Assembly (NCBI GenBank): GCA_038087875.1 | Contig: CM075993.1 | Span: 2,172,001 to 2,236,000, forward strand | Length of the DNA: 64,000 nt | Direction of reading: 5' to 3' | From: Malacoraja senta | Taxonomy: Eukaryota | Part shown: positions 14,999 through 17,283 of the stretch, in pieces | How the letters are laid out: the number at the start of each line of letters is the position of its first letter | How positions within the stretch are numbered: position 1 is the first letter of the stretch | Notes under the pieces: generated by a model | What the model was told of the DNA's origin: nothing | Database searches by the model: none | The model's input: the letters and a program-made list of their open reading frames with translations, nothing else | Made by a program: the position numbers and the translations under genes

Positions 14999-16359
14999 CC
15001 CACCACGACCCAACCCTCTATCATAAAGGTCAGATGGAAGTTCTTGTATTACTCGTTTTATTATGAGACTATATTACTTCGGTTGTTGTTTTTTGTGATT
15101 TCACACCGCTGCTTTGAAGATTGACGCGCAGGCGCACTGGCGGGGTTCTTCACGTAATCACCCACGTAACTCCTCATAAAATAAAGATCAAACTTCAAAC
15201 TTAGGTAAGTTCTCGTTTAATCTTACTATTTATAATGGGTCTTTTTGATTCTCCCAAAATATTTTACTGCCAATAAACTGAGTTGGAACTGTAAGTGTTG
15301 TTCCAATACAGGCTACGATGATGATTATTGTAGTTTTTGGTTTAAACAGGCCCTTCGGCCCACCGAGTCCGTACCGACCAGCGATCCCCGCACATTAATA
15401 ACACTATCCTACACACACTAGGGACAATTTGCACATACACCAAGACAATTAACCTACATACCTGTATGTCTTTGGAGTGTGGGAGAAAACCGACGATCTC
15501 TGAGAAAACCGACGATCTCGGAGAAAATCCACGCAGGTCACGGGAAACTGTAGACAGCACCCGTAGCCGGGATCGAACCCGGGTCTCCGGCGCTGCGAGC
15601 AGTTGCTGTAAGGCAGCAACTCTACCGCTGCGCCACCGTGGCCGGTATTCTGTTGAGACAAAACTTAAGCCAGCATACTGCATTCATAAAAATGCTGAAA
15701 CAATTACCTGTGTTCAGTCAAAGATGAAGAGAAAAGCAGTATTAGTCTTCCAGGAGATGAGTGCCATCCTTTGGATTTTACCTGTTATCTCCTTCCAAGG
15801 AGCAAGGGAGGCTTTAATCAAATTAGCAAGGTTCCATTACATTATTAGCATTCCGGACTGAACGCACCATTTGATTTTAATAAAGAAACATTCTCTGCAG
15901 CAAGGGAGTTCAGCTTATTATATCAGTCATGCAAAACTACCCACCAGGGGCTGCCATTATAAGTGATAGAAAAATTATTTTGGCTGCCTCCTCAGAGCTA
16001 AAAGGTTCTCTTACCTGCCTTAATTAGAATTACTCACATCAGTTGCATTTCATTTATTTTGAGTCAACATTGCATGTGTATCGAGTCAAATAAATTCTTG
16101 GAACGTTAAAATAGAAATAACACGCCTGTCCTGTCAGTACTGCGCGGGGTCGCAGCGGTAGAGTCGCTACCTTACAGCGCTTACAGCGCCAGAGACCCGG
16201 GTTCGATCCCCACTACGGGAGCTGTCTGTAAGGACTTTGTACGTTCTCCCCGTGACCTGCCTTGGTTTTTTCCGAGATCTTCGGTTTCCTCCCACACTCC
16301 AAAGACGTGCAGGTTTGTAGGTTAATTGGCTTGGTGTAAATGTAAAAATTGTCCCCTAG

Positions 16360-16491
16360 TCTTCTTCTGGCGTATACAGCGTAAAGTTGTCGGAAAACTT
16401 GTTCTATTTGATCTTGTTTGACTGTGCACACCAGGCTGATTGCCTTCGTCGAAACTGGGCGGACCACGTGAAGGTTGCAATCTCCCACCCC
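16360..16491 (-). mobile_element. 132-bp short retroposon with HDV-like ribozyme head and (AGA)n tail, inserted into an HE1-like SINE
   Basis: TSD aattgtccc(c)tag at 16347-16359 and 16492-16503. The host SINE is continuous once the insert is removed. The tail reads ccagaagaaga. Confidence 0.85.
16438..16491 (-). ncRNA. Putative minimal HDV-like self-cleaving ribozyme (two apparent substitutions in this copy)
   Basis: GGGGUGG-GA-GAUUGCA-ACC-UUCACGU-GGU-CCGCCCA-G-UUUCGA-CGAA-GGCAAUC follows the HDV order P1, J1/2, P2, P3, L3, P3', P1', P1.1, mini-P4, C-GAA, P2'. Confidence 0.75.
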
Positions 16492-17283
16492 AATTGTCCC
16501 TAGTGTGTGTAGGATAGTGTTAATGTGCGGGGATCGCTGGTCGGCGCGGAAGGGCAAAGTTCTCCATAGGTGATCAGCAAGGCTTCCACAGTGAAAGTGA
16601 CTTTTGTGTATGTATTATGCAGACAGATCGGTATATTTTTCAATCCACAGGTAAAAGAGTATTATGTAGACTGTTGATAGACACAAAATGCTGGAAGAAC
16701 TTGAGGGGCATAATTTTCCACACAGAGGGTGGTGGGAATACAGATCAGGCTGCCAGAGGAGGCAATTGAGGCAGGTGTTATTCCAACAATTATAACATTT
16801 GGACAGGTACATGGATAGGGAAGGTTTAGTGGGCTATGGGCCACATGTGGGCAGGTTGAATTCCTGTCAATGGGGCACATTAGTCGGCATGGGTAGATTG
16901 GGTCAAATGGCCTGTTTCCATGTTTAATGACTTTACGGTACTTTATAGTACTTTGTCACATGTACCGAGATACAGTGAAATTCCTTTTGTATACAGTTCA
17001 GTACAAGTGTCACTATACACAAGCACTTAGATAAGCAGCTCAGATACAAGTGTATAGCAGTGGTACACTGAGGCAGTATACAGTCCCAGTTTGGCACCTT
17101 TTTCAGGTTCCAGTTGCTGTGAGTGAAGGGTTCTTGACCTGACCTGCAAACCTGTACGTCTTTGAAGTGTAGGAGGAAACCAGATCACCCGGAGAAAACC
17201 CACGTGGTCACAGGGAAAATGTACAAACTTCCGTACAGACAGCACCCGTAGTCAGGATCGAACCTGGGTCTATGGTGCTGTAA

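Follow-up and report, generated by a model that had tools for sequence, protein, structure and literature searches.

The window analysed here is a stretch of 64,000 nucleotides from Malacoraja senta (GenBank assembly GCA_038087875.1, contig CM075993.1, positions 2,172,001 to 2,236,000 of the forward strand). It contains a tRNA-headed SINE with an exact B box on the plus strand (16140..16552), which is split by a short insertion lying on the minus strand at 16360..16491. This insertion, 132 nt in length, is a copy of a non-autonomous element derived from a Vingi-like LINE by internal deletion, and it belongs to a family whose members are approximately 139 nt long, and relative to these it has lost 7 nt near its 3′ end. 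It is bounded by a target-site duplication (TSD) of 13 nt on the 3′ side of the element (16347..16359) and of 12 nt on the 5′ side (16492..16503), the two copies differing by a single C and the latter adjoining the first nucleotide of the element, G1. The flanks are joined in four uninterrupted copies of the host SINE within the window, in agreement with the initial annotation, which had described a 132-bp insert with a 12/13-bp TSD inside a SINE that it termed HE1-like.

Read from its 5′ end, the insertion consists of a part that matches the 5′ end of the LINE (nt 1 to ~78; 16414..16491), a junction filler of ~16 nt (16398..16413) in which 8 nt repeat LINE nt 72-79 and the rest is without clear source, and a part in common with the LINE 3′ end together with an (AAG)n tail (16360..16397; ~45 nt in the family). 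Nucleotides 1-54 (16438..16491) are predicted to form an HDV-like nested double pseudoknot, with two mismatches in this copy, and nt 47-49 (16443..16445), which are AUG in the family, read AGG here. The element has no good pol III boxes, as had been noted, the best A-box match having three mismatches and the best B-box match two, compared with two and none, respectively, in the host SINE. The suspicion that this copy is inactive also appears well founded, because two predicted pairs are broken – one of them at the cleavage site – and the 3′ end is damaged; the window copy is probably dead.

Copies of the short element and their ends

A genome search returned 1,470 candidates, and the 3′ 25-mer of the element has 2,837 exact matches in the genome compared with none for a control; this count takes in some LINE ends, and together with the sample of copies described below it gives a lower bound of ~2,600 copies. 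The exact 25-mer is carried by 11 of 38 copies in a sample biased by its enrichment for indels. The insert, treated from the outset as one member of a presumptive family, thus belongs to a family of ~139 nt with thousands of copies in this genome.

Copies were sampled as the first 30 matches of the 3′ 25-mer, picked regardless of their 5′ ends, and 29 of them are independent (L054 duplicates L053). Of these, 27 extend as far as the head; the remaining two are a truncated copy of the short element and a copy with LINE-type letters at the break. The 27 full copies diverge from the column majority by 4.8% on average and have no common sequence upstream of the head, and a TSD of 7-14 nt (mode 12) was detected in 24 of them. 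The prediction that 5′ ends coincide with G1 is largely borne out, with the TSD ending at G1 or 1 nt inside it in 19 of the 24 copies, and 1-6 nt before G1 in the other five. The short element is therefore known from dispersed, TSD-flanked copies of 139 nt, without coding capacity. All sampled words of the element also occur in runs of six organisms, some of which may be the source of this assembly, and a metagenome scan for the head gave 0 matches.

The body of the element has a nested-fold z-score of −2.9. An 11-bp stem can be drawn between nt 59-69 and nt 114-124 (L009:1559-1624), connecting the part from the LINE 5′ end to that from the LINE 3′ end, and this stem is longer in the short element than in the LINE owing to the change A61G. 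A 6-nt palindrome occurs identically in the two arms and could alternatively represent a repeated protein site.

The parent LINE

In contigs of four runs aligned with the element, the same loose end joins at nt ~100 in all four. The motif at this loose end, which has 268 matches in the genome, forms the terminus of a LINE with coding sequence. Nucleotides 100-139 of the element are matched in 27 of 31 LINE loci, seven of them at 100%, and nt 95-138 are matched at 95% in L390/L401; at the other end, nt 1/2-77 have 89-91% identity to L398, L399, and L370, and a head lies less than 3.5 kb upstream of the LINE end in nine of 40 further loci. The head runs directly into APE, RT, and a C-terminal CCHC finger over ~3.1 kb in both L398 and L399, and L398 has head, tail and TSD. 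L370, with the head and the 3′ 1.5 kb of the LINE inside one TSD, represents an intermediate form. Because the 5′ and 3′ ends of the LINE are both present in it, the short element is an internally deleted LINE, composed of LINE nt 1 to ~78, the ~16-nt filler, part of which duplicates sequence at the junction, and the LINE's final ~45 nt.

The initial annotation had proposed a promoter-less SINE with a ribozyme head that borrows the reverse transcriptase of a LINE, possibly RTE. Dependence on a LINE holds, and the suggested search for a partner with the same 3′ end did recover one in this genome, ~3.1 kb in length; RTE as the partner does not hold, since the LINE with both ends, matching at ~90-100%, is Vingi-like. 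The designation as a SINE is likewise replaced by that of an internally deleted LINE, a catalogued kind of element (PMC5786205, PMC3414825). That the element is derived from, and dependent on, a Vingi-like LINE of the same genome we regard as practically certain.

The closest intact relative of the LINE protein among the matches listed is P0001, with 72% identity, 1019 aa, APE and RT domains, and no RNase H. Relatives among the matches listed are ~1000 aa in length, and none of those matches is a named Vingi or Ingi protein. No RNase H family is present in the best 120 of 337 homologues, nor was RNase H detected in a Pfam scan of three L399 pieces together with P0001, P0004, and P0008. Because there are frameshifts in all of the LINE copies read, a single ORF is deduced from the frames and the relatives. 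This anatomy corresponds to the published description of Vingi, which includes the lack of an RNase H domain (PMC13708176), and the length of ~3.1 kb estimated from L398/L399 compares with 3128 bp for Vingi-2_Gav. Judged by its anatomy, the parent LINE is very probably a Vingi.

The first codon of the LINE reading frame is an AUG at nt 47-49 of the predicted ribozyme (L398:266-430, L399:275-440), and because this is the first AUG, the 5′ UTR of the LINE would be the predicted ribozyme itself. An N-G-P-x-Q-G motif is common to P0001 and the LINE, and its distance from the first Met of P0001 equals that from the LINE AUG, a spacing that gives a weak hint that the AUG at nt 47-49 is used.

RTE families and other rejected partners

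Two RTE families of this genome were rejected as the parent. They were found through DUF6451 (30 + 20 loci), with RTE-A (L185-L193, L200) ending in (AAG)n and RTE-B (L205, L208, L212, L244-L270) in (TAAG)n, and at the 3′ end they share with the element only the microsatellite tail, or nothing; no 3′ match beyond the tail is present in the 30 + 20 loci. Thirty loci from a PF14529 search likewise had no match to the element. Negative-letter patterns for a LINE sharing head or tail gave 219, 328, 19, and 72 matches, and those listed consist for the most part of short-element copies that are truncated or vary by indels. The 219-match set, of which 30 loci were read, includes inverted LINE heads, and the 328-match set includes one LINE end. 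Among 19 filtered matches there is no element with the same P1 and a long P4.

The heads of both RTE families are HDV-like and in register with that of the element; they have the pairs C1-G36 and G22-C37 and a P4 that is long. The RTE-B head is identical to the Vingi head at 18 of 20 positions over nt 10-29, and that of RTE-A at 17 of 19; in P2/P3, RTE-B is closer to the Vingi head of this genome than gharial Vingi is. Ribozyme exchange between clades and convergence are candidate accounts of this likeness. RTE-B is also present as many internally deleted head-plus-tail copies of ~300-600 bp with varied junctions (L244-L270), and the head joins the 3′ end within the locus in 16 of 17 RTE-B-headed loci read. 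The pattern matches number 651 in all, from mixed families, and L216, one of the weak DUF6451 matches, represents a third, different RTE-like family.

The predicted ribozyme

The fold predicted for nt 1-54 has a P1 of 7 bp, a J1/2 of 2 nt, a P2 of 7 bp, a P3 of 3 bp, and an L3 of 7 nt; P1.1 is the C22-G37 pair, J4/2 is present, and P4 is vestigial, with at most one pair. The helix lengths and L3 are presumably equal to those of the CPEB3 ribozyme, and minimal HDV-like ribozymes without P4 occur in microbiomes. P1, P2, P3, L3, C22-G37, and the cytosine at 16448 are all as the initial annotation had described them, and the mismatches that it reported in the window copy, G1-A36 (A36 at 16456) and A16-G48 (G48 at 16444), are indeed present. 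The cytosine at 16448 is C44, which is predicted to be catalytic by analogy with published members of the HDV family (PMC4836649, PMC13635239).

A descriptor of the fold, written post hoc after the fold had been seen, gives no strict match and one match with two mismatches allowed in the window copy, and one strict match in copy L009. None of 5,000 dinucleotide shuffles of the 139-mer match it, at either 0 or 2 mismatches, and over both strands of the window there is exactly one match, at 16491, with 1, 0, 0, 0, and 0 matches in five shuffled windows. The comparison with Rfam models that had been recommended turned out negative, with no HDV-family match at E≤10 for the window copy or L009, and no CPEB3 or tRNA match on the element; Rfam models leave pseudoknots unscored and expect a P4. 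Nested-fold energies are no better than those of shuffles for the head (z +0.9) or the whole element (z −0.8), although nested MFE folding leaves pseudoknots out and these folds do not show the pseudoknot. One weak Rfam match (E 9.4), to Phage_DGR (RF03022) at L009:1488-1606, covers letters resembling L3-P3-J4/2; it is probably due to chance, and the RF03022 model may conceal a minimal HDV-like motif.

In the sampled copies, the majority letters form all 18 pairs and include the catalytic residues, and in 13 of 27 the predicted pairing is complete, with all 18 pairs plus G25, C44, and A47. The U expected at the two mismatched positions is found in the family, at 36 in all 25 copies having that position and at 48 in 26 of 27. 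Core residues are similarly prevalent, with U20 in 26/26, G25 in 24/26, G1 in 22/27, and C44 in 25/26 of the copies having the position. Subfamily-linked changes are compatible with the fold: G8A is in the linker, G32A turns U-G into U-A, which is the LINE state, and G45U is in J4/2; part of the variation at 32 and 45 is attributable to decay, because both are also CpG sites. No two-sided covariation of helices was seen within the family among the sampled copies. Across the RTE heads, which we take as homologous to the Vingi head, P1 is replaced whole and C22-G37 is swapped to G-C, in heads that are themselves imperfect, having an A17-A29 mismatch and a J4/2 that is too short or too long by one nt. 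The head has deletions in 4/27 copies and the body in 2/27, so that they are no rarer in the former, as expected for neutral copies.

In a published J1/2 length series, activity is nil at 0 nt, little at 1, and rises with 3 and 7 (PMC4908430), placing the 2-nt J1/2 here at the low end. The near lack of P4, the lack of two-sided covariation within the family, the imperfect RTE cores, and the inactivity of some well-folded trypanosome SIDER ribozymes (PMC4035085) also speak against activity. In its favour are the canonical core residues, the numbering in common with CPEB3, a U21-U38 pair like that of a fast natural ribozyme (PMC13635239), and the swaps of P1 and P1.1 across the RTE heads. On balance, we think it likely that intact copies self-cleave.

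The 5′ end of the gharial element Vingi-2_Gav is, we assume, very close to the mammalian CPEB3 ribozyme. By eye, this end (nt 2-74, from the supplement of PMC5786205) has the same fold type and the same L3 as the head described here. CPEB3 is not mentioned in the main text of PMC5786205, and the phrase ‘CPEB3 ribozyme’ was not found in the Vingi-ribozyme literature searched. In the CPEB3 ribozyme, G1-U36, U20/G25, C22, A23, and G37 are numbered as here (PMC4836649), and the element differs from it in having a P4 of at most one pair, in lying within a mobile element, and in having an ORF start inside P2.

Inverted LINE 5′ pieces

Thirteen independent LINE copies, among 93 loci that include some duplicates, carry an inverted 5′ piece (L323, L325, L330, L338, L339, L344, L351, L359, L362, L373, L388, L393, and L377/L378). 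The outer end of the inverted piece is at LINE nt 71-81 in 12 of the 13, with the qualification that BLAST ends of these pieces may overrun by a few bases; the start of the forward piece varies between nt 418 and 2666. A single TSD surrounds the whole inverted insert in eight of ten copies checked, and microhomology of 2-7 nt is present in six copies. The inverted piece ends where the short element and L370, too, depart from the LINE. This pattern points to a second priming site in a fixed position immediately after the predicted ribozyme, as in twin priming; such a fixed end point of inverted 5′ LINE pieces was not found in the literature searched.

Discussion

The family, the presence of both of its ends in the LINE, the TSDs, the boundary at G1, the ORF anatomy of the parent, and the fit to the fold are together best explained by a deleted derivative of a Vingi-like LINE that has an HDV-type ribozyme head and is mobilised by the LINE protein, a reading to which we assign a probability of about three in four. 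The element would be transcribed by read-through of host transcripts, and its RNA would then fold and cut 5′ of G1, with C44 as the general acid. The LINE protein would bind this RNA via the 3′ 45 nt, and probably also via the stem that nt 59-69 form with the 3′ end, and insertion into new sites would proceed by target-primed reverse transcription with the Vingi protein acting in trans. Mobilisation in trans by the parent protein is suggested by the common ends and the similar TSDs.

The same origin could be combined with a different account of the 5′ end, in which an internal pol II promoter starts transcription at G1 and the HDV fold is a slow ribozyme or a vestige of one, or has a role in translation and protein binding. 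Because the 77-nt head of L1Tc/NARTc, Pr77, acts both as a ribozyme and as an internal promoter (PMC4035085), the boundary at G1 is accounted for just as well by a promoter, and the pile-up of 5′ ends at G1 fits both alike; the short J1/2, the missing P4, the lack of an Rfam match, and the position of the first AUG at nt 47-49, inside the fold, also favour such an account. However, the 18 pairs and catalytic residues are the majority state, the subfamily changes keep the pairs, and the non-coding derivative still keeps the fold while having no need of translation, and we consider it unlikely that the promoter sets the 5′ end in place of the ribozyme.

Alternatives that assign the element a different parentage are less probable still. 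An RTE LINE as parent or mobiliser would fit the (AAG)n tail, which RTE-A also has, the similarity of the heads (18/20 for RTE-B and 17/19 for RTE-A), and the many head-plus-tail deletion copies that RTE-B yields here, but the 3′ likeness is limited to the tail, P1 and P1.1 differ, and the Vingi-like LINE matches both ends of the element at ~90-100%; RTE parentage is largely refuted, and we hold an RTE LINE in either role to be very improbable. We rate as close to negligible the chance that the element is a pol III SINE whose tRNA-like head has degenerated and that its fit to the ribozyme is fortuitous: a loose A-like motif at nt 5 and a B-like motif at nt 38 can be pointed out, but these boxes have three and two mismatches, there is no tRNA match, the descriptor is matched by 0 of 5,000 shuffles, and the head is the LINE's own 5′ end.

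Internally deleted non-autonomous LINEs are a known kind of element, and the family described here is one of them, like the R2 SIDEs, NARTc, and the Vingi derivatives of hedgehog. Bipartite non-autonomous LINEs are produced by RTE, Ingi, Vingi, and R2, the named examples including RIME, NARTc, and derivatives of Vingi-1_EE; the clades with 5′ ribozymes in Kojima's 2018 list are R1, R2, R4, RTE, Ingi, as well as LOA, with Vingi absent from the list (PMC5786205). The Vingi-1_EE derivatives of hedgehog (Kojima 2011, cited in PMC5786205 and PMC4494074) are alike in parent clade, as judged by anatomy, and as described there they likewise consist of only the LINE 5′ and 3′ ends and are mobilised in trans; the host differs, being fish-like here, judging from its repeats.

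R2 SIDEs consist of a ribozyme and the LINE 3′ end (PMC3414825). Those of Drosophila resemble the element in combining an HDV-like ribozyme with a 3′ end, in having a short filler, and in relying on the parent's protein, and they rely on co-transcription, as the element would in the proposed mechanism (PMC3414825). They differ in being rDNA-specific, few, and longer (R2Dwi_SIDE is 529 bp), with cleavage shown (PMC3414825), whereas the element is dispersed, is present in thousands of copies of 139 nt, has an APE-type parent, and has a ribozyme that is only predicted. NARTc, RIME, and SIDER of trypanosomatids belong with the sister clade Ingi/L1Tc and have a ribozyme that starts at +1, and the common 5′ block is 77 nt in L1Tc/NARTc compared with ~78 nt here; the trypanosomatid Pr77, however, is a shown promoter (PMC4035085) and has a different ribozyme sequence, and the host here is a vertebrate. 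Further general background is given in PMC7936874, PMC7761336, PMC5753468, and PMC4494074.

Neither this family nor a Vingi ribozyme was found in the literature searched, with Repbase, Dfam, patents, Ruminski 2011, and Kojima 2011 lying outside the search. Against that literature, the putative HDV fold in the Vingi clade, its near lack of P4, and the inverted 5′ pieces with a fixed end point appear new, and the very small size, the Vingi parent, the nearly P4-less predicted fold, and the fixed-point inversions are unusual traits. The predicted fold would extend 5′ HDV-like ribozymes to the Vingi clade. The element is also a natural template of 139 nt that has been copied thousands of times, mostly at full length, and it marks the minimal cis signals (78 + 45 nt) in a clade that has found use in RNA-based gene writing (PMC13708176). 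How the protein deals with the LINE 5′ end can be approached from the fixed end of the inverted 5′ pieces, which is a testable clue. If intact copies do cleave, approximately half of some thousands of insertions would be sites at which host pre-mRNAs could be cut, and the ribozyme would be among the smallest of the HDV family.

A wider reading, which as a whole we regard as possible though doubtful, joins Vingi-clade HDV/CPEB3-type ribozyme heads, active P4-less copies, a grip of the protein on the RNA, and a link to CPEB3. If it is true, Vingi LINEs would as a clade begin with an HDV/CPEB3-type ribozyme doubling as the 5′ UTR, and a 54-nt P4-less ribozyme would be active in more than 1,000 copies across the genome, which could cleave transcripts of the host. 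The Vingi protein would grip the RNA just past the ribozyme, giving a fixed second priming site at nt ~71-81, and this grip would explain both the inverted heads and the origin of minimal 139-nt parasites. The link to CPEB3 comes from the presumed likeness of the CPEB3 ribozyme to the printed gharial Vingi end, and would mean that in mammals the CPEB3 ribozyme may have arisen by domestication of a Vingi head.
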